Source of the DNA: Escherichia phage 4E8
Length of the DNA: 64,000 bases
Sequence record: OQ689734.1
Direction: 5' to 3' (one strand)
The notes below the pieces were generated by a model. It was not told the DNA's origin, searched no databases, and saw only the letters and a list, made by a program, of their open reading frames with translations. Both the position numbers and the translations under genes were made by a program. Below, piece by piece: positions 14,154-41,170 of the stretch (position 1 is its first letter; the number at the start of each line of letters is the position of its first letter).

Positions 14154-14164
14154 TAATGTATATA
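14154..14164 (+). promoter_or_regulatory. TAATGTATATA motif, candidate phage-sigma-dependent promoter element
   Basis: exact motif ~35 nt upstream of the 1481-aa gene start; same 11-mer recurs at 23855 (+) and 23782 (-), near-copies at 30561 (-) and 35382 (-). Confidence 0.4.
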
Positions 14165-19606: not shown

Positions 19607-20136
19607 TATTCAGTTCCTTCTGTTTTTAAGTAATCACGATCCATATAGTAGGTTTTAACGGAATCTTGAGATGGTGTTGGGTCAAAAACTACCAACATAC
19701 TCCCTTTTGTGTTTCCGTTAACAGGGACTCTAGTATCAGCTCTTACAAAACTAATACGTCCTCCTGTTATAAACATTATACTATTAGCATTTATCCTACA
19801 CTTATCAAACCATCGAACTGAAGTATCCGCTGGAATAAGTAGAACTGTTCCAACATTGTGGTCCTGTTGATTTCTAATTGCCAAGTCAACCCACGGTCCA
19901 ATATCTGAATATGGTGGATTACACCAAACATAACTACCTCTAAACACTTCAAAGTCATAAGTCAGAGCATTATCTTCCTCTGATATGAAAGTGCTAACTA
20001 GGTGATTGTCTTGACTTGCTGCAATATCACATACGAAGTGTTTATTCTTATTAACATAATTAAACAACCACTGAGGTGTTTGCCACAAATCTCTTATATC
20101 TACCGGAGTGTGTGAGCTTCTATAATCTGTTACCAT
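19606..20136 (-). CDS. dam: DNA N6-adenine methyltransferase (phage Dam-type)
   Basis: motifs WQTPQWLF and VWCNPPYS (NPPY catalytic motif IV). Confidence 0.8.
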   Translation of the reverse strand: MVTDYRSSHTPVDIRDLWQTPQWLFNYVNKNKHFVCDIAASQDNHLVSTFISEEDNALTYDFEVFRGSYVWCNPPYSDIGPWVDLAIRNQQDHNVGTVLLIPADTSVRWFDKCRINANSIMFITGGRISFVRADTRVPVNGNTKGSMLVVFDPTPSQDSVKTYYMDRDYLKTEGTE

Positions 20137-20948
20137 GTTTTATCCAACCAAGTCCATTCGAATAAGTCACCTTCAGCTTGTCCAACGAATAGCAATCGAG
20201 CATTTTCTAACATCTTAGCTTCTGCTTCTTCCTCGAACCTCTTATAGTATTCCATTCGTATAATATGATAAAGAGTCCACTTATCGAATACCTTCTCAAT
20301 AAGTTTGATAGCAGCTTTGCTACCAATACCCTTACGACGCATAACTAAATTACCGCCCCACATCATTTCAACTTTCTCACCACACCCGGGGATGTTATCT
20401 GTACTATCCCCAATCAACATCTGATAGAAGAAGTTCTGCCATGCTACTTCCTCTGATACATAATGAGGGGGTACTTCTTTCTGTCGTTCACCACAAGCCC
20501 AGCGATAATGCCATCCGGGAGTGATTAACAAATCCTTATCACGAGTACAGATGATTGTGTTCTTTTCTATACGCTGTCGTTCAGCGAGTGCATCATCTGC
20601 TTCTCTGCCAAACACTTCAACATACTGGTAATGTTCTTTGATATAATCACTAACGTTCTGCCAGTGATGAGGTCTTTCTCCCGGTGGTCGATTAGCTTTA
20701 TAACCTTGCTGCTTAGCAATATCAAACCGAAAATTACCACCTTCGCTGAAATAGAAGACAGTTTTCTCACAACCTGACCTTGCAATGATTACGTCAATTT
20801 TGTGTTGAAGGCGTTCGATCAAGAATCCATAATCAACTGGAACACGACCTGTGTCTAGGAAAGGATGCTCTTGTGTAAGAGCACCAACCTCATACCGTAG
20901 AACATCTGCATCCACAATTGCTACTTCAGGATAGATTACATCAGACAT
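20130..20948 (-). CDS. 5'-3' exonuclease / flap endonuclease (PIN-53EXO)
   Basis: DADVLRY, GREADD, TRDKDL, IGDSTDNIPG acidic motifs; start placed at MSDVIY to avoid a 35-nt overlap. Confidence 0.75.
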   Translation of the reverse strand: MSDVIYPEVAIVDADVLRYEVGALTQEHPFLDTGRVPVDYGFLIERLQHKIDVIIARSGCEKTVFYFSEGGNFRFDIAKQQGYKANRPPGERPHHWQNVSDYIKEHYQYVEVFGREADDALAERQRIEKNTIICTRDKDLLITPGWHYRWACGERQKEVPPHYVSEEVAWQNFFYQMLIGDSTDNIPGCGEKVEMMWGGNLVMRRKGIGSKAAIKLIEKVFDKWTLYHIIRMEYYKRFEEEAEAKMLENARLLFVGQAEGDLFEWTWLDKTW

Positions 20949-21537
20949 AGAGATCTCTCCGTGTCCTTTCAACAATCCAATTTAAATAATCTACTGCATC
21001 TTCTACGGTAGAGTCGTTTACTAAATAGTATGTGTTTCTCTGACTGCCTTCGATGTAAGAACGAGAGTCTCCTTCAAATGAGCAGTCATCACGAAGAATC
21101 TGAACTACCTGAACATGGAAATGCTCTTCCAGTTCTGAAACCTCTGCTTTGAATCCACCGTCAGAGAAGACGATAACATCTTTCTGCCCTAACAACTGTT
21201 GCTTGATACTACTAACAGCCAACTTACCCATACAGGTATCACCAAACATTGGCTTCAAGTAGCTCTCACTAGTTGCAATCATCAAATCTCGAACTGACTT
21301 ACCGCCCCACTCAGGACGGCTTCGTTCTTTCCATTCTCGGTCGTTGTACAGCTCCATGAACCCATAAAGAGGGAGACCTAATGCAGCAGCAGCCACTCGA
21401 TACATAGGCTCCTTAAAAGCCTTTACATGCGGTCTAAACTCATCATTACCAGTGGTCTTCTCTAACCAAGCATTAGCGATTGTATCTTTACCACAACCCG
21501 GAGGTCCATTCAGAATTACTACTAATGGTTTACTCAT
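20941..21537 (-). CDS. P-loop nucleotide kinase (dNMP-kinase-like)
   Basis: Walker A ILNGPPGCGKDT; ~200 aa. Confidence 0.55.
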   Translation of the reverse strand: MSKPLVVILNGPPGCGKDTIANAWLEKTTGNDEFRPHVKAFKEPMYRVAAAALGLPLYGFMELYNDREWKERSRPEWGGKSVRDLMIATSESYLKPMFGDTCMGKLAVSSIKQQLLGQKDVIVFSDGGFKAEVSELEEHFHVQVVQILRDDCSFEGDSRSYIEGSQRNTYYLVNDSTVEDAVDYLNWIVERTRRDLYV

Positions 21538-23781: not shown

Positions 23782-23792
23782 TATATACATTA
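23782..23792 (-). promoter_or_regulatory. TAATGTATATA motif (minus strand)
   Basis: exact 11-mer read on minus strand in AT-rich ORF-free intergenic region. Confidence 0.35.
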
Positions 23793-23854: not shown

Positions 23855-23865
23855 TAATGTATATA
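23855..23865 (+). promoter_or_regulatory. TAATGTATATA motif (plus strand), divergent from the copy at 23782
   Basis: exact 11-mer; no + strand gene follows, so may drive an antisense or noncoding transcript. Confidence 0.3.
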
Positions 23866-26939: not shown

Positions 26940-28787
26940 TTAGTGAGTGTGATTCCAGTTTAACCCAATCTTACAGTCAGATGCCAGAGGGCATTCCATT
27001 TTGAGATACTCACCTGCTTTACGAACACACTCTTCAGTGAGGGTACGAAGTTTGTTAACATCGTCACGATGTACAGTGAACTGGCCTTCATCATGCATGT
27101 CAATAACCTTCGCACAACGAACACCATCACGCTCAATCCATTTATTGAGGAATAGCATTGCATACTTCATAACAATCGCCCCAGCGCTCTGTAAGAGTGT
27201 ATTTAAGGCTTTATGGACCATAACCTTTCCAGTTGCATCTCTTCTCATTGTAATACGACGTCCATCCACACCGTAGATATATCCACTTTGTGCTTTCTCT
27301 GTCATACGTTCAATAAGGATTGCAATACAAGGATTCTCTGCTAAGAATCTTGCTCTCATGATAGCCCCTTCGTCAGAGCCTCCACCAACGATAGAACCGA
27401 GCTTAGCATCACCTGCACCATAGTTAAAGGCATATATAAACGTCTTAGCGTTATCACGAGTAGGAAGACCAGCAAGTTTTTGGTTATGTGAGTGAATGTC
27501 TCCTTCTAAAAGAATATCTCTGTACATAACAGCAGAAGCTAGACCGCGTTCAGCTTCTCGTTTCTTAGCTGGGTTGTTTTCTCGCTCTGCTTCAGCGAGC
27601 ATCTCACGACATTCTTTAATAAGGTAGTGAGCTAGCATCCTCAGCTCAAGACCAGAGCCATCGTAACCTAAGAAGATTTCACGACCAGCAGGTACATAGA
27701 ACTTATAGGCACCTACAGGTTTGTCTTTCTTGCCCGGTTTTCCCACTTCGTAGATAATGTTAGTACCTTTTCGTACGTAACACCCATCAGGGATATGGTT
27801 GGTAATGATGAAAGGATGGTTATGACTGTCGTCTGAGGAATAGTCAGATTGAAAAAGACTGCGGCACTCGTGACCAAACAAACCGCGAGAAGGAATATTA
27901 ACAACAATGCGATGTTTAAAACGAAATGTCGGAGTAGCGCAGCTATTAGCTTCGGCGGACAACTTACCATCTTTACGTTCCTTGTCGATAAGCCCGCTAA
28001 TCAAACCTAGCCTGTGAGCCGCTACAACACGTCTCTTAAGCAAGCTTCCTACACCCCCTAGCTCACCCCCAAGCCCCTCTTCAAGAGTCTCCTCAAGGTT
28101 TGTAGGGGCTGTGGGCCACTTGTTTGATGTAGCCAAAGCTTTTTTGATTTCATCAAAGGTTACAGGTTTCTTCCTATTCGGATTAAGACCTAAACCACTG
28201 ACGTAGGCTTTCATGTAGTTGACAGTGTGATAACGGAAATGTTTATCCAAAAATCTTCGGATATCAGCATCTATCATCTCCGCTATCTGTTTCTCTTTAG
28301 CATTACCTCGAATCCAAGCAGAATACCATGCAGAGTATGTACCATACTTCTTCATAGCTTTACGAATTTCAAAAGTATTCCAAGGTTTCTTAGAATAATT
28401 CCACTCTGGAGGTATAAAACCTTCATCCATCAAGGCTTCTTTAATACGTGCATCTTTTGATGGGTCAAAATCTACATACTCAACGCAAGTAAACGCCCCA
28501 CCGATATCTTCTCTTTTAAGACCAACCCTATCGCAATAGAGCTGAGGCCACTTCTGTAAAGCACCTGATTTCTTAAAAGGCTTAGCATAAGTTGAACCGT
28601 CCACCCGCATTTTGGGGAGGAGAGGAATCAGTTCTTTATCAATATTGACAATAATCTCTTTGAGAAGGTGAACAAACCACCGAGCGTTTCTTCTGTTGAA
28701 GTTGACTCCATGCTTCGCCTGTTTTGAGATTATATCAGCGACTGTCATCTCCGTTATGAAAGGTAACTTATCAGGGTTATCCATCAC
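26940..28787 (-). CDS. DNA polymerase, family A, polymerase domain only (no exonuclease domain)
   Basis: motif A YDGSGLELRMLAHY, motif B RDNAKTFIYAFNYGAGDAKLG, motif C VIDMHDEGQF. Confidence 0.9.
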   Translation of the reverse strand: MMDNPDKLPFITEMTVADIISKQAKHGVNFNRRNARWFVHLLKEIIVNIDKELIPLLPKMRVDGSTYAKPFKKSGALQKWPQLYCDRVGLKREDIGGAFTCVEYVDFDPSKDARIKEALMDEGFIPPEWNYSKKPWNTFEIRKAMKKYGTYSAWYSAWIRGNAKEKQIAEMIDADIRRFLDKHFRYHTVNYMKAYVSGLGLNPNRKKPVTFDEIKKALATSNKWPTAPTNLEETLEEGLGGELGGVGSLLKRRVVAAHRLGLISGLIDKERKDGKLSAEANSCATPTFRFKHRIVVNIPSRGLFGHECRSLFQSDYSSDDSHNHPFIITNHIPDGCYVRKGTNIIYEVGKPGKKDKPVGAYKFYVPAGREIFLGYDGSGLELRMLAHYLIKECREMLAEAERENNPAKKREAERGLASAVMYRDILLEGDIHSHNQKLAGLPTRDNAKTFIYAFNYGAGDAKLGSIVGGGSDEGAIMRARFLAENPCIAILIERMTEKAQSGYIYGVDGRRITMRRDATGKVMVHKALNTLLQSAGAIVMKYAMLFLNKWIERDGVRCAKVIDMHDEGQFTVHRDDVNKLRTLTEECVRKAGEYLKMECPLASDCKIGLNWNHTH

Positions 28788-28800
28788 CCACTCCTTATAA

Positions 28801-29154
28801 TTATTGGTATATTAAATCTGTGAATGCTTGGTTGTCTTCAACAATATCTAAAGCTTCATATGAATCAGCCAATTCATCCACATAAAAGACTGCTGGAACA
28901 TCTTCTGCTCGCTGTCTACGAGCTTCTCTCCGTTCGTTGCTGTTTCTCTGAACCTGTGCAAGTTTCATACCCCACACCTGCTCATATAACTCTGGATACT
29001 TGTCACTAACCACTACATAGTTTCGAGCTGGTTGGTTTCTATTAATCTTCGCTGTCAACTCAATAAACTGGCGAAACTCTTGAATAGAGAGGTTATCATG
29101 AATATTATCCCACTTGAGAACGCAGTGACGTTCTAGGCGTTGAGGTACTGGCAT
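28801..29154 (-). CDS. hypothetical protein
   Basis: 117-aa ORF. Confidence 0.5.
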   Translation of the reverse strand: MPVPQRLERHCVLKWDNIHDNLSIQEFRQFIELTAKINRNQPARNYVVVSDKYPELYEQVWGMKLAQVQRNSNERREARRQRAEDVPAVFYVDELADSYEALDIVEDNQAFTDLIYQ

Positions 29155-29157
29155 AAC

Positions 29158-29427
29158 TTACTCCAATGTAGGGAATGGTTTTAGGTTGTTCATGGCTGTA
29201 CGAACATCAGCACAGATTTCAGGGTCACGATAAGAGAGGAATTTACCATCCTTACCACGAATCATTACATTAGTCCGTGCTGTTTTATTAGGCAATAAAG
29301 AAATCCCTCCAATAAGATGGTTGGTAGGGTGTTGTCCTTGATTAACTTTGTAATCATGAGTCTGAGCGTCACCGTTAAAGAGATGATCACGAATTTGGAT
29401 TAAACTAATCTTCATATTATGCACCAA
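29158..29427 (-). CDS. hypothetical protein, tandem paralog a
   Basis: shares ARTNV-x-RG-DGKF-S-RD ... NLKPFP with the next gene. Confidence 0.5.
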   Translation of the reverse strand: MVHNMKISLIQIRDHLFNGDAQTHDYKVNQGQHPTNHLIGGISLLPNKTARTNVMIRGKDGKFLSYRDPEICADVRTAMNNLKPFPTLE

Positions 29428-29668
29428 AGTTAGGGAAAGGTTTCAGGTTTTCAATAGACTTAGCAATACGCTTAGGAACACTGCTATCACGGAAGGAGAT
29501 AAACTTTCCATCAGCACCACGAAGAGCTACGTTAGTGCGAGCTGATGTTTGGTTAAACTGAATCATCTCAACAGCACCTGTAACGTTTTCTACAGGGAAG
29601 GTGTAGCTTTCGGTTGCATTCTGAGAGGGGAGAAAATCAGTTACAGTGATATAAGTTACTTTAGACAT
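29417..29668 (-). CDS. hypothetical protein, tandem paralog b
   Basis: shares ARTNVALRGADGKFISFRD ... ENLKPFP. Confidence 0.5.
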   Translation of the reverse strand: MSKVTYITVTDFLPSQNATESYTFPVENVTGAVEMIQFNQTSARTNVALRGADGKFISFRDSSVPKRIAKSIENLKPFPNFGA

Positions 29669-29687
29669 ATTTATTACCTTAGGTTAT

Positions 29688-29720
29688 ATAAAAGAAAAGG
29701 CCACCCGAAATGGGTAGCCT
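29688..29720 (-). terminator. rho-independent terminator (minus strand)
   Basis: ggctaccca-tttc-gggtggcc hairpin followed by TTTTCTTTT on minus strand. Confidence 0.55.
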
Positions 29721-29724
29721 TATA

Positions 29725-30219
29725 TTAACTTGAGCTTAAAGCGTGTCTGATAGCTGTATGGCTTACACCAAACATTCTACCTAAAGCTCTTGTTCCAAAC
29801 TGAGCAGAACCTTTGACATAAAGATTTTTAACTCTTTTAACATCCTCTGTATTAAGTTTCATTCTAGGGTTTATGTTCCTGTGATGGCCTACATTAAGAC
29901 CTGTATCAAAAGAATGTTGAACATTCTCAGAAGCATCTGCCCACTCTAGATTCTCAATACGATTATCACTTTTTACACCATTCTTATGATTTATCTGAGG
30001 TTTGTTTTCAGGGTTAGGTATGAAAAAGGTTGCTATCAACCTATGAGCTTTCCATGACCTCCCTTCAAAATAAACCCTAATATAACCTTTAGTGTCTAAG
30101 TGGCCAGCCTCTTTACCCGGATGGCTCTTATTCCACTTAAGACCTTTTGAAGACGACTCTGTGTAAAACAGACGACCAGAATCTCTATCATAAGAGAGGT
30201 AGTCGGATATAGGAATCAC
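29725..30219 (-). CDS. HNH homing endonuclease
   Basis: GTG start; KAHRL...NP...INHKNG...DNRIENLEW HNH core plus C-terminal HTH-like LGRMFGVSHTAIRHA. Confidence 0.7.
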   Translation of the reverse strand: MIPISDYLSYDRDSGRLFYTESSSKGLKWNKSHPGKEAGHLDTKGYIRVYFEGRSWKAHRLIATFFIPNPENKPQINHKNGVKSDNRIENLEWADASENVQHSFDTGLNVGHHRNINPRMKLNTEDVKRVKNLYVKGSAQFGTRALGRMFGVSHTAIRHALSSS

Positions 30220-30530
30220 TGACTCAGCGCCCCCTTCCTTCCACCATTTGATTTTCCAGCACGATCTCCACTTTTGCCGCCGTTCGAGCGATTTCGAGAG
30301 ACTGATTCAACACGTAAGTTACTTGACGCATTAGAACCTCCCGACTTGATTGATCGTTTGTGTCCAACATCTTTACCTCGGACAGCAGCTTTTCCATCGC
30401 GCTTTTCAACGATGCGACGTGCACGGTGGCGCTGAGCATCTCCGCTCTTGCTACCAACACCTGTCTCACCCCTTGCGATTGCAGTTCTTCGTTCTTGTGC
30501 ATAATCACGTTTCGCCTTATCGGTCATCAT
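30216..30530 (-). CDS. basic Gly/Arg/Lys-rich hypothetical protein
   Basis: ATG with AAGGAG RBS; 4-nt overlap with HNH gene; a second full-length ORF (30224-30508) exists in another frame. Confidence 0.4.
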   Translation of the reverse strand: MMTDKAKRDYAQERRTAIARGETGVGSKSGDAQRHRARRIVEKRDGKAAVRGKDVGHKRSIKSGGSNASSNLRVESVSRNRSNGGKSGDRAGKSNGGRKGALSQ

Positions 30531-30560
30531 AACTCCTTAATATATCAGTGTACACTAAGG

Positions 30561-30571
30561 AGTATACATTA
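30561..30571 (-). promoter_or_regulatory. TAATGTATACT promoter-like motif (minus strand)
   Basis: ~30 nt upstream of the 30530 start. Confidence 0.3.
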
Positions 30572-30574
30572 TAT

Positions 30575-31312
30575 TTATGATTTTTCAGATTCCATTGCTT
30601 TAACAATAGCTTTACAGAAACCTGAACGAACAATATCATCCGATTCGCCATCTACTAGAGCGGCAAATTCAAATAACTGGTGACGGTAGATGAAATCAGT
30701 AGCCCAATCAAGACCGCTCTCACCACGCATGTCGTGCTGGTTAGTGTCCCCCATGCAGAACATCTGAGAGGTTTCACCAAGACGTGTCATGATTGAATAT
30801 GCTTCATCAGGAGTAGTGTTCTGGAACTCATCAACAATCACGATAGCATCGTTGAACGAGCGACCACGTAGATATTCCAGAGGTACGAACTCAATATTAC
30901 CATTACCTACTTGACATTCGTAGAAACCTTTACCGTAGCGCTGAGTAATAACATCAACGATTGGCATTAGGTATGGTTCAAACTTCTCACGAAGCCCACC
31001 GGGAAGTAATCCAAGACTATTACCCATACCAACAGCAGGTCGGCTTAGGATAATCTTCTCAATCTTCCCACTCTTCAGAGCATCAATCACTGTAGAAGTG
31101 ATTACGAAGGTCTTACCACAACCAGCAGGAGCATCTGTGAATACAACCTGTTTGGTTTTAATTGCATCAAGCAGCTCACTCTGGAATTGGTTCTGAGGTA
31201 CTACCGGCTTAGCAAGAACTACTTCTTCAAATTCCCGCTTTCCTTTCTTGGTGACGAGAGCTTCACGACGTAATTCTCTCCGTGATGCTTTCCGAGATTC
31301 TCTACGACTCAT
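30575..31312 (-). CDS. phoH: PhoH-like ATPase
   Basis: Walker A DAPAGCGKTF, Walker B IVDEFQN, PhoH motifs LPGGLREKFEPY and CMGDTNQHD. Confidence 0.85.
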   Translation of the reverse strand: MSRRESRKASRRELRREALVTKKGKREFEEVVLAKPVVPQNQFQSELLDAIKTKQVVFTDAPAGCGKTFVITSTVIDALKSGKIEKIILSRPAVGMGNSLGLLPGGLREKFEPYLMPIVDVITQRYGKGFYECQVGNGNIEFVPLEYLRGRSFNDAIVIVDEFQNTTPDEAYSIMTRLGETSQMFCMGDTNQHDMRGESGLDWATDFIYRHQLFEFAALVDGESDDIVRSGFCKAIVKAMESEKS

Positions 31313-31490
31313 TTCCTACCTCCGTGTTCTTCATATAAGAAGCTACAGGATTTACACTCTGAGCAATGGATACCTATAACCTTAATTTCGACAAACTTCT
31401 TATTCTTCCCTTTAGTCGGGGAGCCTTTGGCAAGCTCCCGTATTACTTTCGAGTCCAAATGGAGAAGAGTTGATTCACATTTAAAACATT

Positions 31491-31811
31491 TCAGATTGAT
31501 TTGTCCTTATGTAAACGGTATACTTCAGTAGCCATACAAGCTATACGCTCGTCATGTGGGAGATGCATACCAGTAGAGCCGTTCCATCCTTCGAACTCTG
31601 AATCAAAGAATCCAATAGGCTCGGGATACATCTCTTGCAAGGTGGTTAAGTCATCAGCCACTTGTTGCCACTTATCGTCAGACCAGATTGGGTCATCCAA
31701 CCAATAATACAAATAGGAGTGGATAAGCATCTGTGTTCTATGTCGTTTAATCACTTCAGCAGGACTAATCTCGTTTCCGTTACCAGTCCTAAATGTATTA
31801 TCATTGATCAT
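31491..31811 (-). CDS. hypothetical protein
   Basis: 106-aa ORF; SYLYYWLDDPIWSDDKW...EMYPE faintly resembles LigA Ia-domain signature (weak). Confidence 0.45.
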   Translation of the reverse strand: MINDNTFRTGNGNEISPAEVIKRHRTQMLIHSYLYYWLDDPIWSDDKWQQVADDLTTLQEMYPEPIGFFDSEFEGWNGSTGMHLPHDERIACMATEVYRLHKDKSI

Positions 31812-32021
31812 TTATTTAACCTCAACAATCCCAAGTTTCCAAACATATCCGGGAGCAGAGTCCTGTACGGCTCCATATTGAAGAACAGTATCACAAGCAT
31901 CACTATCTATACCATCAAGCATCAGCTGACCACGAGTAGGACGTTCTTTGTAATAGGTTACTTTGACTTCTGTGTCATGAGTCCGTTCACTAAAGCATAG
32001 ACTTAATTTGTAGATTCTCAT
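31812..32021 (-). CDS. hypothetical protein
   Basis: 69-aa ORF. Confidence 0.4.
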   Translation of the reverse strand: MRIYKLSLCFSERTHDTEVKVTYYKERPTRGQLMLDGIDSDACDTVLQYGAVQDSAPGYVWKLGIVEVK

Positions 32022-32497
32022 TCTAAAACCCTTTCCTCTAAATCATAAAAGATTTGATTTGTCCCATTGTTTTCAACAAGCACTGTCCCGTTATCTAACA
32101 GGGTAGTAACTTGTGAATAAGGAATGTTCTTTAACATCAGAGCATTGATGGTTGGCTTATTTTTGAAGTAAGCGACCGGCTCAACGTAGAAGGAAATCCC
32201 ACGACTTCCTTTGATTGGTGTGCTTGAAGACAGAACCCAAATCGTTTCTGGCTTGTCTACTTCCTTTTCAACACCAACCTCAACAAGCGAGTCAGCAGCG
32301 AAACCTACAGGACGACTAGAAGAGCCAAGCGCCCGAATAAATCCCGGTAATTTCGACATATTAGACCAACTACCAGTGTTTTCATTAAACACAGGTCTTA
32401 CATCACCATATGCCCAAACCAGATTATCACAGTCACGGGCTATGTATTTGGTCCAATCAGGAACATCATACTCTCTTCCTTCAAAAATAGCTTTCAT
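32018..32497 (-). CDS. hypothetical protein
   Basis: 159-aa ORF. Confidence 0.5.
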   Translation of the reverse strand: MKAIFEGREYDVPDWTKYIARDCDNLVWAYGDVRPVFNENTGSWSNMSKLPGFIRALGSSSRPVGFAADSLVEVGVEKEVDKPETIWVLSSSTPIKGSRGISFYVEPVAYFKNKPTINALMLKNIPYSQVTTLLDNGTVLVENNGTNQIFYDLEERVLE

Positions 32498-32692
32498 TTA
32501 GATAACCTTGTGCTTGTAGATGCTAGGGTTGAAGTAATGCAACCAGTTTATGTATTGTTTCTGTTCAAGGTAGTGTCTGCAATCATGACAAAAAGCATGA
32601 CCCAAACCTGTTTCCTCGTTCAGCTTGAAGTTGATAAGAAGCTTCTGCTTTTGACAGAAGCTACATGCTTTAGTGGGCTTCACGTAGTGCAT
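32498..32692 (-). CDS. small Cys/His-rich (zinc-binding?) protein
   Basis: CSFCQK...HAFCHDCRH; start moved from 32806 to internal Met to limit overlap with thyX. Confidence 0.35.
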   Translation of the reverse strand: MHYVKPTKACSFCQKQKLLINFKLNEETGLGHAFCHDCRHYLEQKQYINWLHYFNPSIYKHKVI

Positions 32693-33320
32693 CCCATGAG
32701 ATTGGGAAAAGTTTACGAAGCTCTTCATCAACAGTTGATGCGAACACTCGTACTTCATACTGAGCATGGTCGGACAGTCGCTGACGACATAACTCTGACC
32801 AGCCATATAAAGAACCTGTCCACACCCACTCAGTGATCATACCTTGAGGTAGAACGAATCGGGCTTGCTCTGGAGCAATAAACTTAATCAACTCATCATA
32901 TGACTCAAGAGCTGTTTCATATGCCCGATTAATCAGAACTAGTGCAGAGTTTTGCGCTCCTGTGGTGAGGAGATTCCCCGCACCTGCATGGAGGTCCGAA
33001 GGTCTTTCAAAAATCTCTTTAGGGATGAAGAGTTCAACTGCTCCATCTTTATACCGCCGGGACATTTCGTTCCACGAGAATCCAACTTGATGCTTGCCCA
33101 GCTGTCTCGCAATTGCGATTGGCGCTTTGCATCGGAAGCTAATTGTCGGATGGCGGAATGGTGTGACATGCTTTTCTCTGGCAAGGAACTTGATAAGGCG
33201 TTCATCTCGTTCATTTAACTCTCCTTCACGAGTAACCCCAAAGGAAACTCGAGCTGCATTAACAACAGATTTATCAGAACCCATTGCTTCAATTAGTGTT
33301 GCTTGTAATTGTTCGTTCAT
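32670..33320 (-). CDS. thyX: flavin-dependent thymidylate synthase (ThyX-like)
   Basis: FRHPTIS ... SWNEMSRRY resembles the ThyX RHR...S...SxRY signature. Confidence 0.65.
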   Translation of the reverse strand: MNEQLQATLIEAMGSDKSVVNAARVSFGVTREGELNERDERLIKFLAREKHVTPFRHPTISFRCKAPIAIARQLGKHQVGFSWNEMSRRYKDGAVELFIPKEIFERPSDLHAGAGNLLTTGAQNSALVLINRAYETALESYDELIKFIAPEQARFVLPQGMITEWVWTGSLYGWSELCRQRLSDHAQYEVRVFASTVDEELRKLFPISWDALREAH

Positions 33321-33334
33321 CCTTGAATTCTTCC

Positions 33335-33550
33335 TTAGTAATGAATCTTTTTATAAACCATGTTGCTTCCACTTTCTGTTTCAATCCCTTTCTGGATTGT
33401 AATCTTAGAAGCACCAGTGTTAACAATTTTTAAAGCTCGCTTAAAGCGGCGAGCCTCTTTCCGTGTGGAGTATGTTGAGAAGCTAGGGATTGTGCTATCA
33501 AAATTAAACCACTTAACTACCCAAAAAGTAATCCAAGGTTTCTTTTCCAT
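33335..33550 (-). CDS. small protein, RKEAR-family paralog 1
   Basis: STRKEARRFKR and C-terminal KKIHY shared with three paralogs at 35417-36038. Confidence 0.5.
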   Translation of the reverse strand: MEKKPWITFWVVKWFNFDSTIPSFSTYSTRKEARRFKRALKIVNTGASKITIQKGIETESGSNMVYKKIHY

Positions 33551-33551
33551 A

Positions 33552-33827
33552 TTAAATACCTTTCAGAGCCGTGTCTAAAAATGCACGGAGATTAGATTCA
33601 GTTTGCATACCTGATAAACTATAATGAGCACCACTATTCTTATCAGGTACGACAAAGGCTGGGATACTGCGAACACCATATTCAATGGCTCGCTCTCGAC
33701 CATCACCTTCAGAGATATTTACTTCTTCAACTTCTACACTGTAGTCAGCCACAACCTTCTTAAACACAGGAGCCATAGCTGCACATGGAGCACAGGAATT
33801 ACTATAAAACTTAATTACTTTACTCAT
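33552..33827 (-). CDS. thioredoxin-fold protein
   Basis: FYSNSCAPCAAMAPVF CxxC active site; ATG with AAGGAA RBS (track ORF begins at upstream TTG). Confidence 0.65.
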   Translation of the reverse strand: MSKVIKFYSNSCAPCAAMAPVFKKVVADYSVEVEEVNISEGDGRERAIEYGVRSIPAFVVPDKNSGAHYSLSGMQTESNLRAFLDTALKGI

Positions 33828-33828
33828 T

Positions 33829-34005
33829 CTATTCCTTGTTAATAAACAGATTGATATGACGCTGGGTAGCAGGAACAACAATAAAAGATTTATACTGACC
33901 TTTTGCTAAGTCATGAGCAATCTTCTTTGTCTGACCAAGACCCATCACACAGCCACTAACGATAATGGCATGTGCTTGTAATTCTTCAGGTAGGTTTAGT
34001 TTCAC
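33829..34005 (-). CDS. small hypothetical protein (58 aa, GTG start)
   Basis: sub-threshold ORF with AAGGAA RBS; fills gap between membrane-protein gene and thioredoxin. Confidence 0.3.
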   Translation of the reverse strand: MKLNLPEELQAHAIIVSGCVMGLGQTKKIAHDLAKGQYKSFIVVPATQRHINLFINKE

Positions 34006-34017
34006 TCTTTGGGTTCC

Positions 34018-34203
34018 TTATAGCATACAAAGAATAATAACAAGAGGTAGTGTTATAGCAAAATGTACCAGAACAACACTACCAAGCTTGATAGCTTTAA
34101 CATCCTCTTCTGCTGGGTTTTCTTTAATTGCTAAATTTCGAGCTTTATATATAACAGTACCAACTATTAATGACCACACGGCCCACACAATCAGTGAAAT
34201 CAT
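34018..34203 (-). CDS. small two-TM membrane protein, tandem paralog a
   Basis: IVWAVWSLIVG...KENP...IKLGS pattern shared with the next gene. Confidence 0.5.
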   Translation of the reverse strand: MISLIVWAVWSLIVGTVIYKARNLAIKENPAEEDVKAIKLGSVVLVHFAITLPLVIILCML

Positions 34204-34212
34204 ATCAAACCC

Positions 34213-34434
34213 TTATGCAGTCAACAGGTGGAGAAGGAAAGGAATGACAACAGAGAAAACTACCAGAGCAATGCTACCATGTTTAATAGGTTTAGCATCA
34301 TTCGGATTCTCTTTAAGCATCTGTTTCTGAGCCAGATAAACGATACCACCAACAAGAATTGCCCACACAGACCATACGATTGCTGAAAACATATTCATAT
34401 CCTTATAAAGAAGTTCGCCCCACCTCTTAAACAA
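34213..34434 (-). CDS. small two-TM membrane protein, tandem paralog b
   Basis: IVWSVWAILVG...KENP...IKHGS. Confidence 0.5.
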   Translation of the reverse strand: MFKRWGELLYKDMNMFSAIVWSVWAILVGGIVYLAQKQMLKENPNDAKPIKHGSIALVVFSVVIPFLLHLLTA

Positions 34435-34455
34435 AGAGACAGGGCGGAGGTTTGA

Positions 34456-35031
34456 TTAGTAAGACACATCACCACTGGAGTGGGACATGTTGCTCTTGAC
34501 GAAGTAACAGAACTTGCCAAGACCTTCATTGATTTCTTGAAGCATACTCTGATCAACTGGATAGGTGCACAAGTCTGAATCAAACTCGTCCATCTTCTCA
34601 ATGATACACATAAGAGTCATGCACATGTCGGAAAGCATGCCGTCCATGTCGAGATCAGCGTTACCTTCTCGGAACCAAGCATGACCTAAATAATTACTAG
34701 CAGTAGCATCCACTTTAACACAATGAAAGCGCATACGCTCTGCTATTCGGTCGCCTGCCTCACGAGCATAATCTTCTAGTTCATCGAACATACCATGAAC
34801 ACCTTGGAAACCAGCTCCAGAGACGTTCCAGTGGTAGTTCTTTGCTTTGATGTGTAGAAGTTCAAGATTAGCTTGCACACCACACAAGATGTGTTCTAAG
34901 CTGTTACCGCTAATCAGTTTATTCATTCCCTCAAGACGAGAGATAGAAGAGTCAGCAGTAGAGAATGGGTTGCTAGAACCCACTCGTGTTAGTTCTGGTA
35001 AGTCGAAGACATTATTATGCATTAGGTGCAT
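34456..35031 (-). CDS. Dps/ferritin-like protein
   Basis: LHIKAKNYHWNVSGAGFQGVHGMFDE...DRIAERM matches the Dps ferroxidase-centre helix pattern. Confidence 0.6.
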   Translation of the reverse strand: MHLMHNNVFDLPELTRVGSSNPFSTADSSISRLEGMNKLISGNSLEHILCGVQANLELLHIKAKNYHWNVSGAGFQGVHGMFDELEDYAREAGDRIAERMRFHCVKVDATASNYLGHAWFREGNADLDMDGMLSDMCMTLMCIIEKMDEFDSDLCTYPVDQSMLQEINEGLGKFCYFVKSNMSHSSGDVSY

Positions 35032-35344
35032 CCCCTTCTAAGTTAGTTGAATTAGCTACATTACGAGCAATGTTATCCATGACCTGTTGTGTGATAACAA
35101 TGCAATTCTGAGGGTCTACTGATTTAGAACGCCCCATTTCAGGGTCATAGACTTTGACTCGCTTGGCTGTTGAGCCAGTAACTTGCAACACTTTGAGAAG
35201 ATAACCTTGATTTCCAATAGACCATGCAACAACATCACGATTCTTGATATAACGACCAAGCATATCACGATGATAGAACTGCTGCATAACTTTAGCTTTG
35301 CTAATCTCTTCGGCTGGCGGAGCCACTTTACTCAAATCTAACAT
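35015..35344 (-). CDS. hypothetical protein
   Basis: 109-aa ORF. Confidence 0.5.
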   Translation of the reverse strand: MLDLSKVAPPAEEISKAKVMQQFYHRDMLGRYIKNRDVVAWSIGNQGYLLKVLQVTGSTAKRVKVYDPEMGRSKSVDPQNCIVITQQVMDNIARNVANSTNLEGDAPNA

Positions 35345-35381
35345 TTCACTCTCTCCTGTTCAATACAATATTCTTATACTG

Positions 35382-35392
35382 TATATACATTT
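35382..35392 (-). promoter_or_regulatory. AAATGTATATA promoter-like motif (minus strand)
   Basis: one mismatch from TAATGTATATA; ~38 nt upstream of the 35344 start. Confidence 0.3.
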
Positions 35393-35416
35393 GAGAGTGA
35401 TCATATCTACTACCAA

Positions 35417-35626
35417 TCAGTAGTAAATTACTTTAGACATAAAAGAACCAGTGTTAGGGTCTTCATACCAGCGATGTATGTCAGCGCTTTTTACTATTGT
35501 GCCCAGAATCTTCAACTGTTTCTTAGCAATACGAGCCTCTTTGCGAGTGTCAAACAATTTGATGCTATCTTTTCTCGTGTGTTGATCAAGATCCCAAACA
35601 ACACGAATCGCCCACATCTTTTTCAT
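35417..35626 (-). CDS. small protein, RKEAR-family paralog 2
   Basis: DTRKEARIAKK ... SKVIYY. Confidence 0.5.
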   Translation of the reverse strand: MKKMWAIRVVWDLDQHTRKDSIKLFDTRKEARIAKKQLKILGTIVKSADIHRWYEDPNTGSFMSKVIYY

Positions 35627-35841
35627 TAGTAGTGCACCTTTCCGCTGATATAAATACGGCCTGAGGTATACTCATAGCCCTTGAGAATCTTAACAGAGGT
35701 AGTGGAGCCATCGTTTAGTGCACAGATTGACTTCTTAAGATTGCGTGCATCTTCTCGTGTCTTCTGGTAGGTCATGGTCACACCCCCACTCTTCCACTCT
35801 GTTTTAACTAACCAAACTATTTTCATAAGACCTGCTCTCAT
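35626..35841 (-). CDS. small protein, RKEAR-family paralog 3
   Basis: KTREDARNLKK ... SGKVHY; start/stop overlap with neighbours. Confidence 0.5.
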   Translation of the reverse strand: MRAGLMKIVWLVKTEWKSGGVTMTYQKTREDARNLKKSICALNDGSTTSVKILKGYEYTSGRIYISGKVHY

Positions 35842-36038
35842 TAGTAGTACACCTTGCTTCCAGCCATGAACGCCCCTGTCGAGCTTATCATGGCTTTGCT
35901 GATAGTAACTTTCTTACACCGTAAACATACCTTCCAATTCTTTTTACAGATTCGAGCTTCTTGTCGAGTGTTACAAAAAATAGCCGAAGATATTTCTTGA
36001 GTGTTGTTGTCATAAACACGAACACACCACTTTTTCAT
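35841..36038 (-). CDS. small protein, RKEAR-family paralog 4
   Basis: NTRQEARICKK ... GSKVYY. Confidence 0.5.
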   Translation of the reverse strand: MKKWCVRVYDNNTQEISSAIFCNTRQEARICKKNWKVCLRCKKVTISKAMISSTGAFMAGSKVYY

Positions 36039-36241
36039 TTTACTAAACCCTTCATGTAATCGTAGAGGTTGTTAGAAGCTTTGCCCCATTCGACATGCTT
36101 CTTATCCATGTAATCCTTAAAGATTTCTCTATTATTTTCGACACACGTATCATACTGCTGACACGCTCTGCCAAATGTCATAGCTGTTAACTGAACCTCA
36201 GTAGTTAAACCTTTAAGTTCTTGAAACTCTTCTTCAGTCAT
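36035..36241 (-). CDS. hypothetical protein
   Basis: 68-aa ORF. Confidence 0.45.
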   Translation of the reverse strand: MTEEEFQELKGLTTEVQLTAMTFGRACQQYDTCVENNREIFKDYMDKKHVEWGKASNNLYDYMKGLVK

Positions 36242-36775
36242 TTAGACACCCTTAGAAGCAACTACACCCTCGCTACCATTATAGCGACCCTTAACTGCAT
36301 AGGAATGTTCACCGGCATGTGAATGCTCAAACATTACCATCTGACCGACACGCATACCAGCACGAACACGTAAGCTGTGGTGCTTGGTTACGTTGTGGAA
36401 TTCGAACGTCAGCTTGCTATTATTAAACCCAGCGTCTGCCCACCCGGCGTGAAGGTGGTTCAAGCCACAACGAGCCATTGAGGAGCGGAGTACAAACAGA
36501 CTTGAGAGGTTATCTGGAAGGTTAAATTCTTCCATTGAGTGAGCTAAGAAGAACTGTCCCGGAGTGATGACAATACCATCTTCAGGGATTTTCACCTCTT
36601 TCCACTTGAGGTTTTCTTTAGCATCAATATCAACAATGCCGTCAGCCTGTTCTTCAACAAGGATAGTATCACCAATACGGATATCCACACTAGCAGCGTT
36701 AACATATTTATGCTCCGCATCTAAAAAGCCATTATCAATAACGCTGTGTAATTCTTGAGAACCTAAAAGACTCAT
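36242..36775 (-). CDS. dcd: dCTP deaminase (dUTPase-fold)
   Basis: SSMARCGL, AGWADAGFNNSKLTFEF, GMRVGQMVMF match the dCTP deaminase core. Confidence 0.8.
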   Translation of the reverse strand: MSLLGSQELHSVIDNGFLDAEHKYVNAASVDIRIGDTILVEEQADGIVDIDAKENLKWKEVKIPEDGIVITPGQFFLAHSMEEFNLPDNLSSLFVLRSSMARCGLNHLHAGWADAGFNNSKLTFEFHNVTKHHSLRVRAGMRVGQMVMFEHSHAGEHSYAVKGRYNGSEGVVASKGV

Positions 36776-38190
36776 GAGTTTCTGTTTCCTTGTACAGATG
36801 ATGCCAAATTGTTAATCATGTTACGAGCTGTTTCACGAGACAGTGTAACACCTGCTAAGTTACTATCAAGTTCACCAACCATTTCACGAGCAGCAGATCG
36901 TAGTTCTGCACCAAGTGCAGTATTAGAGTGAGCCAAACCATTACGACGACTATAAGGGCGAGGGGCTTCGTTAGCGTCATTAGCTAAAGATGCAAAGCCA
37001 GTACGAGCAGCTTCACGAGCCGCTATCGCTGCTACTTGATCTTCCATATGGGTTGGCACATCACCAACTTCTACACGTTCTATATCACTAGCACGTAGAC
37101 CCTGAACAACAGAGCTTACTGTTTCCCATGAACGACGAGAACGCTGTAAATCTCCCATTGACGGAGAAGAAGCAGGACGAATAGTTACCCCACCTGTGTC
37201 ATGAGTTACATGCCATGTATGGTTGTGGGTGTCCGTCCCAGAAGATCGTGCACTACCAAAACTGCCAGTGAAAGTGTCACGTCTGTTAGTTCCTGGAGTC
37301 CAAGGTTGTGTGATTGCTTCAGCACCGATAGTAACTAACCCACTAGACCATTCTGTCTGTAGGTTAACTTCTTCATCCAGATAAATATGACCTACTTCCG
37401 GAGGAATATTTAATGCAACCTCCATCATCTTCAAGGTATAATGACGACGTTGATTCTGATACAAGTTTACACCAGCCATAGGTCCAACTAGATCACTGAT
37501 AAGATGAACTTCTGGCTCACCAAAAGCACCCATCGCAAGGTGCATGTATTCAGTAGAACTGCTATAAACTGCAACAGTTGCTTCAGGCCACTTTTTGTGA
37601 ACATATTTCATTTCACGACTTGATACTACAGGAATGTCACGAGTATACGACATTGCAAACAAACCTTCATCTGACACATACATGTCATCAAGAGTCATGA
37701 AACCCTGACAGATCATAGGGAAGCGACCACATAGAGTGTTCATATCCAGAGGAAGGTTAATCATCATCTGAATCTTCACTTCATCAATCTCAATTTCCAG
37801 AATCTCTTGGAAAATGAAAAGTGCATCAGCGTAAGTTGCTCCGGTGATAGGCTGAGCTAAGCGAGATGTAACTTGAAGCCCCTTACTCTCTGTCCAAGAC
37901 AAGAAGTTGTCAAGGAACAGTGCAGCATTACTTACGTTAGCAGGGCTGTTTTCCTGACGAGTGTTCCAACGTAATCCTCCTTGAACTAGGAAGATATCAA
38001 CATCATTCGGAGTTCGGTTTTGGAAGAACGTATCACGAATAGCACCACCTGCAATAACAGGGTAGATACCATCAGGAACTACGTTGTCTCTGATCAGATT
38101 GCGAATCAGATCAAGCCCTACGCTGAGGGCTTCTCCTTCTTGAAGGTTTAATTCAGACAATGGAATCTTAATCATTTCTACATTTTCCAA
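36772..38190 (-). CDS. pol-beta-superfamily nucleotidyltransferase (CCA-adding / poly(A)-polymerase-like head), 472 aa
   Basis: [10 protein letters not shown]-x9-NDVDIF matches the GGAVRD...DxD head motif; remainder without recognisable motifs. Confidence 0.55.
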
Positions 38191-38726
38191 TTTAGAGATG
38201 GGGGATTCTTATAATCAAATCCAGCCATTTGACAAAGACACATGTAAACTTTAACTGTCAAGTTAACGTCTTGCTCACAATAGGTGAACATGTCTTCAGT
38301 GAATGCGTCCCATGCCTCCTCCTGTTCTCCATAATCTCCTTTCAGCTCCCCAAGAAACTCGCCCCATTGTCTGAGGCCGTGACCACGAGGGCCATGTCTA
38401 GGGTCGCCTTTGGGGTATTCTGGACTATCACCAATACGGTCAGGCTTGAGATATCTACTCAGGCACAAAGTATCGAAGACGTTAAAGCGAAAAGGTATCA
38501 CATGAGAATAAAACTTAAACAAAGCAGGAAGGTCAAAATCAATAATATTGTGACCTATTACTACATCAGCCTCTTTCAGTTTGTGTAGTGCTTCTTCAAT
38601 TTGGTGAGGGCGATACCCCCACCGCTCTCCAGATAATACATCAAATATCCAGATACACCAGACATTCTGAATACCATCATAGAGATTATCCCCCTCAATA
38701 TCAAACGCATACAGTTTCTTTACCAC
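38178..38726 (-). CDS. 3'-5' proofreading exonuclease (DEDDy), stand-alone
   Basis: Exo I FDIEGD, Exo [10 protein letters not shown], Exo III YCEQDV. Confidence 0.8.
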
Positions 38727-40510
38727 GGACGTGCCTCCCCTTCTTGTGCAAGTAAGGAAGCTGCATCCTCTCCATTGGTAACGGTAAAAGGATGCTCTTC
38801 ATCAACTTCATGATCTTCTCGTTCTACAAGACGACCTGTTTCATTGATGTATTTGGTATAGCAAACCCCTGTCTGTCCATAGTTACGCTCTTTGAGCAGT
38901 CGTATGATTGACAAGTTTTTACCTAACCCATCCGCTTGTTTGTTACGTTCAAAACCAATAATACACTGACACCAGCGCATCAATGAACGTGAACCAGTAA
39001 ACTGTACTTCTTTAACCTGACCACCTTCTTCGTGAGGTGCACCACCTGCCGGAGCGTTCAAGTGAGATAATACAAAAGCAGTGAAGTCTAATTCCTTACA
39101 CATACCAGCAAGCTCTGAAGCAATCTTGCTGATTTCTGTGTTTACCTCAGATGGGGTTAAGTGAGATACCAATGCAGTGATGTTATCAAGAATGATAAAT
39201 TTACACTGATTCTCAACTACCCAAAAGCGAATACACTGCTTAATGTCTTCCCACTCGTTCTGCCCAAAATTGTCATACAAGAAAAACTTATCAGCGTATC
39301 GAAGTGCTTCATCTCGTAGCTGGCTTTCTTCGTACTCAACATCTGGTCGGTGGAATGGAATAGATGCAGATTTACCTGCAATGTTCTTAACAGACATGCC
39401 TACCTTCTCTTCCAAGAAGAAGCCACCACCATTAAAACCATGCTCAAGGCAAAGCCATGCTACTAGTTCGTGTGCGATTAAGGTTTTACCTGAACCAACA
39501 CCACCGCCGATTGCAACCATCTCTCCCCAACGAATACCAAAGGTCATGTCGTTAAGAGTTTTCCACGGATAAGGAATACCCCATTCCGCTTTCTTCAGAG
39601 CATCTTCGAGGCAATCAAAAACTGTAACAGCGCCGGCAGGAGATTCCCGCTTAGCTGAATATTTCAGATTGTTGAAAAGCTCTTGACCTCTCCCTGCAAG
39701 TAACATGTCGTTTGCATCTTTGATTTCCTTTTCTTGTCCGTTATAAGTGAACGTACCTTTTGGAATCCTTGCAAACTTAACATGCGGGTACAGAGAACGA
39801 CCCTTAGTTAAAGCAATCTCACCTGCATCATCATTGTCCATGCAGAGTACAATCTCCTCGAAACCATTAATAAAATCACGGTTTCTTGATAATACAGAAG
39901 AGATTGAACCTGCACCGAACGGAAGAGAGACGCAAGCAGGTTTGATGTTAGTTGCGTTTGTAAACGCGGTAAGTACGTGGAACCCAGACATACAAGAGAG
40001 AGGATCTTCAAAGATGAAGAGTTTCTTGTTGTATACGTCACCACGTTGTGCTTGAGCCATACCAAACAAGTCGGCTTCTTTCACATTACCTACATAATAG
40101 AACTTCTTGCTGTCTAGAAGTTTTACTTCATATCCAACAATGTTCCCATCACGTTCACGAGGGAAGAAGTAGCTGTCAGGAGTTTGACCATCTGTTTGGC
40201 TTAAACCGATACGGCATCCATAACGTTCAGATACAGCTTTAGGAATTAAGCGACGAGTCAACTCTCCCTGAGGAAGCTCTAAGCAATCGTCTAAGACTTC
40301 TCGGAGTTCTTCAGGGGACAGCTCTTTCTTTTCATTAGGAGTGGGCGTCGTTCCTTTCTCGAAGATTTCATACGCACCACATCTGTTACATGAACCCCAC
40401 TCCTCACCGGACTCTTCATTTCGGAAGAGAATCATGTGATTGCGGGTCTTATCACGACCATGAGAGATACACTCTTTACAGCCTGTGTCTCCCAAAATGA
40501 TCTTTGACAT
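38720..40510 (-). CDS. DNA primase-helicase (T7 gp4-like)
   Basis: N-terminal Zn ribbon CKEC...CNRC, TOPRIM acidic motifs (CMDNDDAGE), helicase Walker [10 protein letters not shown]. Confidence 0.9.
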
Positions 40511-40545: not shown

Positions 40546-40752
40546 TTAGTAAAACGATCGTATTTCTTCCCACACATCATCTTGCAAGTTTCTAAAACCC
40601 TGCAAGGTTTGCTTTGTTCTGTGAATAAATTCTTCAGAGTGCTTGTCGGGTGTGAGCATACTGACAAACTTTTCATAGCGATTAATCTTCCACCGCATCT
40701 TCAAGTAGTCAGATTCCAGCTTTCTTAACTTCTGCCTGTCAGTTACTGTCAT
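40546..40752 (-). CDS. hypothetical protein
   Basis: track ORF 40546-40848 overlaps upstream gene by 110 nt; internal Met start used. Confidence 0.35.
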   Translation of the reverse strand: MTVTDRQKLRKLESDYLKMRWKINRYEKFVSMLTPDKHSEEFIHRTKQTLQGFRNLQDDVWEEIRSFY

Positions 40753-41170
40753 CCTTCTCACCTGCCAGATATGCTGTCCAGTCACCAGATTCAACCAGAA
40801 CATCTTGTTCTTCGTCGATGTGATAAATCCACGCTTCCACAGTTTCACCGCTGTCCAATAATACTGGAATCAGTGTACGCTTGTAAAAGGTGTATGGGTT
40901 ATCATTACCACGATGACCTTCCAGACCGTCATACGGACCTTCCAGACCAGCTTGGGTTGTTTCAAAGACTTCTACACGAACAGGCTTACCATTGCTGTCA
41001 TGCTCCAAAGATACACTTGGGAAGTATGCTGTGCAATACTGATACAGGTTACAGTTGTTTACTGTCCACCCTTCACCAATAGACACACCACCTGCACGAG
41101 CATTGATAGCGTGGTTGTGTTGACCTTTACGAAGAGAACCATACGTTGCAACTAATACTTTATCAGACAT
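40739..41170 (-). CDS. gamma-glutamyl cyclotransferase-like (AIG2/GGCT fold) protein
   Basis: N-terminal VATYGSLRKGQHNH (YGSL-x-G motif) and downstream conserved Glu region. Confidence 0.6.
   Translation of the reverse strand: MSDKVLVATYGSLRKGQHNHAINARAGGVSIGEGWTVNNCNLYQYCTAYFPSVSLEHDSNGKPVRVEVFETTQAGLEGPYDGLEGHRGNDNPYTFYKRTLIPVLLDSGETVEAWIYHIDEEQDVLVESGDWTAYLAGEKDDSN

Follow-up and report, generated by a model that had tools for sequence, protein, structure and literature searches.

Separately encoded exonuclease and polymerase parts of a T7-type family-A DNA polymerase in Escherichia phage 4E8

Profile alignments and structure models support the view that two open reading frames (ORFs) of Escherichia phage 4E8 (sequence record OQ689734.1) encode, as separate genes, the exonuclease part and the polymerase part of a single T7-type family-A DNA polymerase. 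The analysed DNA was a single stretch of 64,000 nucleotides, here called the window. That the split is real is near certain. It is also ordinary for the group to which the phage belongs, since it was known before, for this lineage as well as in general, and is a documented hallmark of the phiEco32-like and LUZ24-like phages. The present analysis adds the exact split point, which the alignments place at about residues 199-212 of T7 gp5, in the linker, and the absence, as judged from the sequence, of an exonuclease relic in the polymerase. It also dates the fission to before the Kuravirus and LUZ24 lineages diverged and traces the widening of the gap to inserted genes. The usual picture of a family-A polymerase is that of a single chain with a structurally required exonuclease domain. 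Natural two-piece polymerases would mean that these domains can fold separately and reassemble, and the split bears on the evolution of multi-subunit replicases and on the engineering of polymerases with removable proofreading.

Correspondence of the two proteins to T7 gp5

The two genes are the following.

38178-38726, minus strand: stand-alone DEDDy 3'-5' exonuclease, 182 amino acids (aa), homologous to T7 gp5 residues 2-198
26940-28787, minus strand: T7-type family-A DNA polymerase without exonuclease, homologous to T7 gp5 residues 213-704

Both ORFs lie on the minus strand, at the coordinates that the original prediction, made from the letters of the DNA, had given. They are separated by 9,391 base pairs (bp; 38178 - 28787), in agreement with the predicted distance of about 9.4 kilobases (kb). 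The predicted number of intervening genes (about 25) was also close enough, as the gap holds 23 minus-strand ORFs of at least 40 aa in a greedy ORF map and 24 annotated coding sequences in the near-identical phage Bas87.

When aligned with T7 gp5 using hhalign, exonuclease residues 6-180 paired with gp5 residues 2-198 (36-sequence profile, probability 99.5%, E = 2.8e-22, 33% identity) and polymerase residues 9-615 with gp5 residues 213-704 (54-sequence profile, probability 100%, E = 1.3e-54). With such E-values the likeness is not due to chance. The start of the polymerase ORF corresponds to gp5 residue ~205-213, and about 14 residues of gp5, those of the linker at ~199-212, are unaccounted for by both proteins. 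Since the two proteins tile gp5 save for this linker, the break falls between the domains. The original prediction had proposed to locate the split by alignment with a single-chain polymerase, and the comparison with gp5 did so. Among solved structures, T7 gp5 was the best match of both proteins, by sequence and by fold.

The exonuclease gene starts with GTG, and a Shine-Dalgarno sequence (GGGGAGG) is positioned 7 nucleotides upstream. The DEDDy patterns of the DnaQ-like superfamily, DxE (Exo I), Nx(2-3)F/YD (Exo II) and Yx3D (Exo III) were all found. In the 36 homologues, D9 and E11 of Exo I, N60 and D65 of Exo II, and Y149 and D153 of Exo III are invariant. D9 and E11 pair with gp5 D5 and E7, D65 pairs with gp5 D65, and the two Exo III residues pair with the gp5 YNVQD motif. 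At the C-terminus, the short segment 'NPP' pairs with the gp5 linker segment 'FPPEIDF', and its prolines P175 and P176 are nearly invariant. The AlphaFold2 model of the exonuclease had a predicted local distance difference test score (pLDDT) of 91.5. When this model was compared with the PDB by Foldseek, the top 27 matches were all T7 gp5 chains, the non-T7 matches were weaker by ~5 orders of magnitude, and no DnaQ chain was found among the top fold matches. By its modelled fold the small protein thus resembles the gp5 exonuclease in particular rather than DnaQ or RNase enzymes in general, an unrelated enzyme of that kind being what the original prediction had named as one possible refutation.

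The mechanically called polymerase ORF has a GTG start and 615 codons. One codon downstream, at 28784, there is an ATG with better spacing to AAGGAG, which is also the start annotated in relatives and gives a protein of 614 aa; this ATG is the probable start. The patterns DxxxLE of motif A, RxxxKxxxY/FxxxYG of motif B and HDE of motif C are all present and align with those of gp5. In the 54 homologues, D376 and E381 (motif A), R444, K448 and Y452 (motif B), and H565, D566 and E567 (motif C) are invariant, and the discrimination position is occupied by tyrosine (Y452, equivalent to gp5 Y526). The six motifs that the original prediction had recognised in the two proteins are therefore present and conserved throughout, and the invariance of the catalytic residues indicates that both halves are under selection.

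DNA_pol_A was the sole Pfam family found on the polymerase (85.5 bits against a cut-off of 34.3 bits). T7 gp5 was the best solved-structure match by phmmer (E = 6e-33), and the AlphaFold2 model (pLDDT 91.0) again had T7 gp5 chains as its top 27 Foldseek matches. The N-terminal exonuclease domain that T7-like family-A polymerases (CDD cd08643) carry on the same chain is absent. The profile of the exonuclease showed no similarity to that of the polymerase (hhalign probability 0.2%), in line with the earlier claim that the polymerase ORF has no exonuclease motifs. On the same value we rejected a vestigial exonuclease fold within the first ~360 residues of the polymerase. Residues 138-240 are predicted to be mostly helical with one short strand, which leaves no RNase-H-like sheet there.

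The polymerase shares with its T7 counterpart the catalytic motifs, and the phage shares with T7 the place of the enzyme after a gp4-like primase/helicase and a separate gene for a 5'-3' exonuclease. In contrast, T7 gp5 is a single chain of 704 aa, and T7 has no phage-encoded thioredoxin. The polymerase also carries inserts absent from T7, at about residues 145-200 (helical), 325-365 (beta-rich) and 392-416 (helical), which are ordered and lineage-specific. Its residues ~55-105 pair with gp5 residues ~258-335, the thioredoxin-binding region, but are fewer.

Distribution and age of the split

The phage belongs to the Kuravirus group (Gordonclarkvirinae, phiEco32-like). Nucleotide identity to vB_EcoP-101114UKE3 was 96.4% over 89% of a 15-kb query, and the gene order is the same as in Bas87. 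The polymerase is 99.5% identical to those of NC-B, IME267 and vB_EcoP-101114UKE3, and the exonuclease is 99.5% identical to that of EK010 and 79.7% identical to that of phiEco32. The phiEco32 homologue is named 'DNA polymerase exonuclease subunit' in RefSeq, and the same label is used in Bas87. Every close Kuravirus-group record whose annotation we read had the same split arrangement, with the same genes in the same order as here and no difference of substance. The separation of exonuclease and polymerase has been described as common to the whole phage group (PMC9965538), and separate genes were noted for LUZ24-like phages and phiEco32 in a paper that cites Savalia 2008 (PMC3517423).

All of the closest 120 polymerase homologues are without an exonuclease domain. 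They are 369-618 aa long, the shortest being partial or intron-interrupted pieces, and include the LUZ24-like 'DNA polymerase part II' (42% identity). In LUZ24-like phages (PaP3, tf, NV1), where the pieces are called 'DNA polymerase part I' and 'part II', the primase/helicase gene is directly followed by a stand-alone exonuclease and then by an exonuclease-less polymerase, as here. The identities to the present phage are 45% for the exonuclease and 42-46% for the polymerase, and an amidoligase module is shared. The LUZ24-like genomes differ in their size (~45 kb) and in a gap of ~2 kb with 7-8 small genes, and thioredoxin, ThyX and dCTP deaminase were not found between the halves in the LUZ24-like stretches examined. 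The order primase/helicase, exonuclease, variable block, polymerase also recurs in distant metagenomic relatives. The adjacency of primase/helicase and exonuclease is the most conserved feature of the locus, and the distance from exonuclease to polymerase varies as follows.

Synechococcus phage WH11-B: adjacent, overlapping
Pseudomonas phage NV1: 2.0 kb
L009 (LUZ24-like contig): 2.3 kb
L008 (metagenomic contig): 3.2 kb
this phage: 9.4 kb
L007 (101-kb contig): >10 kb

The identities of the three proteins to those of this phage drop in step, which indicates that they were inherited together as one module.

Bas87: primase/helicase 99%, exonuclease 99%, polymerase 99%
L008: primase/helicase 58%, exonuclease 55%, polymerase 50%
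NV1: primase/helicase 45%, exonuclease 45%, polymerase 46%
L009: primase/helicase 42%, exonuclease 40%, polymerase 44%
T7: primase/helicase 33%, exonuclease 37%, polymerase 39%

Since the split is common to relatives whose polymerases are 42-50% identical, it must be old. As these comparisons have it, one old fission is common to the phiEco32-like and LUZ24-like lineages and predates their divergence, and genes later inserted between the halves widened the gap from ~2 kb to ~9-10 kb.

When 1.84 billion representatives were searched with a profile of the exonuclease, 4,473 relatives were found. We classified 182 exonuclease domains, namely those of the best 150 cluster representatives, of close homologues, of this phage and of T7. 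Polymerase sequence follows the domain in 108 of them, and the remaining 74 are stand-alone. The original prediction had stated in general terms that both activities sit on a single chain in T7-type polymerases, which is thus too broad. In a neighbour-joining tree of these domains, the exonuclease of this phage belongs to a clade made up of 39 stand-alone proteins, and the nearest outgroups of that clade are fused polymerases. Fitch parsimony on this tree counted at least 30 changes between the fused and stand-alone states, which we take as an upper bound only, as the domain is short, the tree is crude and truncations at contig ends can mimic stand-alone proteins.

Fission of the exonuclease and polymerase genes was also described in S-SBP1-like T7-type cyanophages, in the 2023 reclassification of family A (Czernecki et al., Nucleic Acids Research (NAR); PMC10201439). 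As here, a T7-like family-A polymerase (cluster #5) is found in two genes cut at the exonuclease/polymerase boundary, the exonuclease keeps its DEDDy residues and the thioredoxin-binding region is shortened (PMC10201439). However, the S-SBP1 halves are adjacent or overlapping, which was attributed to a recent +1 frameshift (PMC10201439), whereas in this phage they are separated by 9,391 bp with 23 ORFs and the split is old. The adjacent arrangement of Synechococcus phage WH11-B differs from that of this phage in the same way. The split in the cyanophages probably arose independently; by a crude estimate, the neighbour-joining tree needs many changes between the fused and stand-alone states.

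The overlapping halves of such cyanophages (PMC10201439; WH11-B) look as they would after a frameshift, and in some relatives of this phage the polymerase gene has a group-I-intron-like HNH insertion. Both facts could suggest that the split is an artefact, caused by a frameshift in sequencing, by an intron or intein that went unrecognised, or by the decay of an originally fused gene into a pseudogene remnant. We rejected this explanation, the probability of which is virtually nil. It is effectively refuted by the 23 intact ORFs between the halves, some with recognisable functions, by the recurrence of the arrangement in close Kuravirus-group records and in independent metagenomic contigs, by the Shine-Dalgarno site and start codon that each half has of its own, and by the invariant catalytic residues of both. 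In this phage the polymerase gene is uninterrupted, and the HNH/intron insertion is present in SU7, ECBP2, KBNP1711 and PAS59. We mapped it only in ECBP2 (L006, 1986-2591), where a ~600-bp insert with an HNH endonuclease splits the polymerase gene at motif C (HDE). This insert gave a full-length match to the Rfam group I intron model, but the score of 27.2 bits was below the gathering threshold of 50 (E = 3e-4).

Association of the two products

We infer, in keeping with a suggestion of the original prediction, that the exonuclease and the polymerase are likely to associate non-covalently and to proofread as a holoenzyme that functions like gp5. The features involved, besides the two genes, are listed here.

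38720-40510, minus strand: gp4-like primase/helicase, 596 aa, DnaB_C and Toprim matches, acidic C-terminal tail with terminal Trp
33552-33827, minus strand: phage-encoded thioredoxin, 91 aa from an internal ATG, CAPC active site, PF00085 (E = 1.3e-12)
34416-34446, minus strand: terminator-like hairpin with a 13-bp stem followed by a T-rich run, intergenic, between exonuclease and polymerase (consensus scan only)
29697-29721, minus strand: terminator-like hairpin with a 10-bp stem followed by a T-rich run, intergenic, ~0.9 kb upstream of the polymerase (consensus scan only)

In the course of events that we propose, an ancestral T7-type gene 5 would have been cut in the exonuclease/polymerase linker before the phiEco32-like and LUZ24-like podophages diverged. 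The exonuclease half would have kept its ancestral place directly after the primase/helicase and would be translationally coupled to it. Between the halves, dCTP deaminase, ThyX, thioredoxin, PhoH, the ligase-Ia domain, HNH endonucleases and small ORFs would have accumulated, until the gap reached its present 9.4 kb. Both products would still be catalytically competent, to go by their sequences, and would reassemble post-translationally into a non-covalent heterodimer working like single-chain T7 gp5, in which the primer terminus would be shuttled between the polymerase and exonuclease sites. The replisome would be built on the gp4-like primase/helicase, possibly with the phage thioredoxin as a clamp.

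What argues for the holoenzyme is that the two proteins tile gp5 with both active sites invariant, that the linker-like 'NPP' is kept at the C-terminus of the exonuclease, and that both genes strictly co-occur in the relatives inspected. A further argument comes from a report that family-A polymerases depend structurally on the exonuclease domain, which they need for stability (PMC10201439). For the split enzyme of cyanophage S-SBP1, encoded by adjacent genes, an AlphaFold2 complex was found to superimpose on an unsplit relative (PMC10201439).

Several points weigh against the holoenzyme. The Pfam profile PF01612 (DNA_pol_A_exo1) scored 22.6 bits on the exonuclease, below the gathering threshold of 23.6 (E = 9.9e-5); the PF01612 label is precomputed for several of its homologues. 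The three insertions in the polymerase could alter the former domain interface. The two terminator-like hairpins, together with the distance of 9.4 kb, may place the genes in separate transcription units and lead to different amounts of the two proteins. Finally, the GTG of the exonuclease overlaps the stop codon of the primase/helicase gene, and this arrangement of the codons suggests that translation of the exonuclease is probably coupled to that of the primase/helicase rather than to that of the polymerase.

The distance and the hairpins between the genes would also fit an exonuclease that acts as an independent enzyme, in recombination, repair, end trimming or degradation of host DNA, next to a polymerase without intrinsic proofreading. 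Stand-alone members are common as well, as seen for the 74 of 182 classified domains. We nevertheless consider such independence unlikely, since the homology to the gp5 exonuclease is full-length and includes the linker segment that contacts the polymerase domain, since all relatives inspected have the protein together with a polymerase that lacks an exonuclease, the two diverging in parallel, and since a separate 5'-3' exonuclease is already present for other nucleolytic work. The reported need of family-A polymerases for the exonuclease domain (PMC10201439) points in the same direction.

The overlap of the exonuclease start with the primase/helicase stop and the strong conservation of their adjacency raise another explanation, in which the primase/helicase brings the exonuclease to the fork, where it would proofread in trans with a fidelity tunable apart from the polymerase level. 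A metagenomic protein, P0288 (481 aa), even fuses a helicase C-terminal domain to an exonuclease domain (aa 302-475). However, T7 gene 5 is also positioned shortly downstream of gene 4, which means that ancestry alone explains the adjacency, and P0288 is a single cluster that might result from a frameshift or from wrong gene calling where the two genes overlap. Proofreading tethered to the helicase has, as far as we know, no precedent among T7-like replisomes, and delivery by the helicase seems to us very unlikely. We also rate as improbable a function of the separation itself. With the exonuclease coupled to the primase/helicase and the polymerase in another transcription unit, beyond the terminator-like hairpins, the phage could set the exonuclease:polymerase ratio, and hence fidelity, independently, or could load the proofreader via the helicase, so that the exonuclease would be a dissociable, regulatable proofreading subunit. 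If true, this would place such a subunit in a T7-type replisome, possibly alongside a phage-encoded thioredoxin clamp.

For the preferred holoenzyme there is a functional parallel in bacterial Pol III, in which the polymerase (alpha) and the 3'-5' exonuclease (epsilon, DnaQ) are separate polypeptides of one holoenzyme. The functional logic of Pol III alpha/epsilon and of PolD DP1/DP2 is the same as here, but the polymerase families are unrelated and the exonuclease of this phage is gp5-like, not DnaQ/epsilon-like. Archaeal PolD has been named as an analogy (PMC10201439).

The acidic C-terminus of the primase/helicase (38720-38800, minus strand) ends with the residues EGEARPW, the terminal one being aromatic. 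We take this tail to resemble the C-terminal tail of T7 gp4 that docks on gp5 (PDB 6P7E), and by this analogy it may be a polymerase-docking element. By analogy with T7 gp5 and the host thioredoxin, the phage thioredoxin could be a candidate processivity partner of the polymerase. A phage-supplied thioredoxin processivity factor has been put forward as a hypothesis for the related phage Privateer (PMC7881722).

Neighbouring genes and other features of the locus

The region is a minus-strand module for replication and nucleotide metabolism. The products encoded in the gap include a nucleotidyltransferase, dCTP deaminase, a ferritin-like 'DNA-binding protein', thioredoxin, ThyX, the Ia domain of an NAD-dependent ligase, PhoH and an HNH endonuclease. 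Features in and around the gap are listed by position.

20130-20975, minus strand: 5'-3' exonuclease, FEN / T7 gp6-like; PF02739 and PF01367 matches weak, below cut-offs
29725-30219, minus strand: free-standing HNH endonuclease among the gap genes; PHROG 59, E = 3.5e-32
31491-31811, minus strand: NAD+-binding Ia domain of NAD-dependent DNA ligase, alone, 106 aa; PF22745 Nlig-Ia, E = 8e-34
34456-35031, minus strand: ferritin-like protein, 191 aa, annotated 'DNA binding protein'; PF00210, E = 7e-8
36772-38190, minus strand: nucleotidyltransferase-like ORF, 472 aa, directly after the exonuclease; PHROG 12715 'nucleotidyltransferase', E = 5e-151
40739-41170 and upstream, minus strand: module upstream of the primase/helicase, with amidoligase, glutamine amidotransferase, DUF7195 and gamma-glutamyl cyclotransferase (GGACT)

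The homologue of the 5'-3' exonuclease is labelled 'exonuclease' in Bas87, and this enzyme has been given as a separate subunit (PMC9965538). The HNH endonuclease in the gap fits a contribution of mobile elements to the growth of the gap. The nucleotidyltransferase-like protein has an N-terminal Pol-beta-type signature (GGAIRD...DVDIF), a C-terminal half that is seemingly of low complexity, and no Pfam match. The Ia-domain protein is labelled 'DNA ligase' in relatives, yet it is far too short for one; the distant contig L008 has a small homologous ORF (11151-11450) shortly upstream of its polymerase gene. The ferritin-like protein may, from its sequence, be a Dps-like protein of the replication module, and a ferritin-domain gene occurs at a similar position in the distant contig L007 (12708-13223).

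A scan for sigma-70 promoters gave 29 sites against 35.6 in shuffled sequence, which is no excess. We also scanned for TAATGTATA, which we tentatively take to be the middle/late promoter element of phiEco32 gp36-sigma and on which we base no claim. With one mismatch allowed, the element was not enriched (21 matches against 20 expected). Exact copies numbered 4, against ~0.5 expected from length alone.

30563-30571, minus strand: exact copy of TAATGTATA, between the exonuclease and polymerase genes
23784-23792, minus strand: exact copy
14154-14162, plus strand: exact copy
23855-23863, plus strand: exact copy

The amidoligase, glutamine amidotransferase, DUF7195 and GGACT module upstream of the primase/helicase is common to phiEco32-like and LUZ24-like phages and was seen in Bas87, NV1, L007, L008 and L009. 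One of its members is annotated in Bas87 as 'ribosomal protein S6 glutaminyl transferase'.

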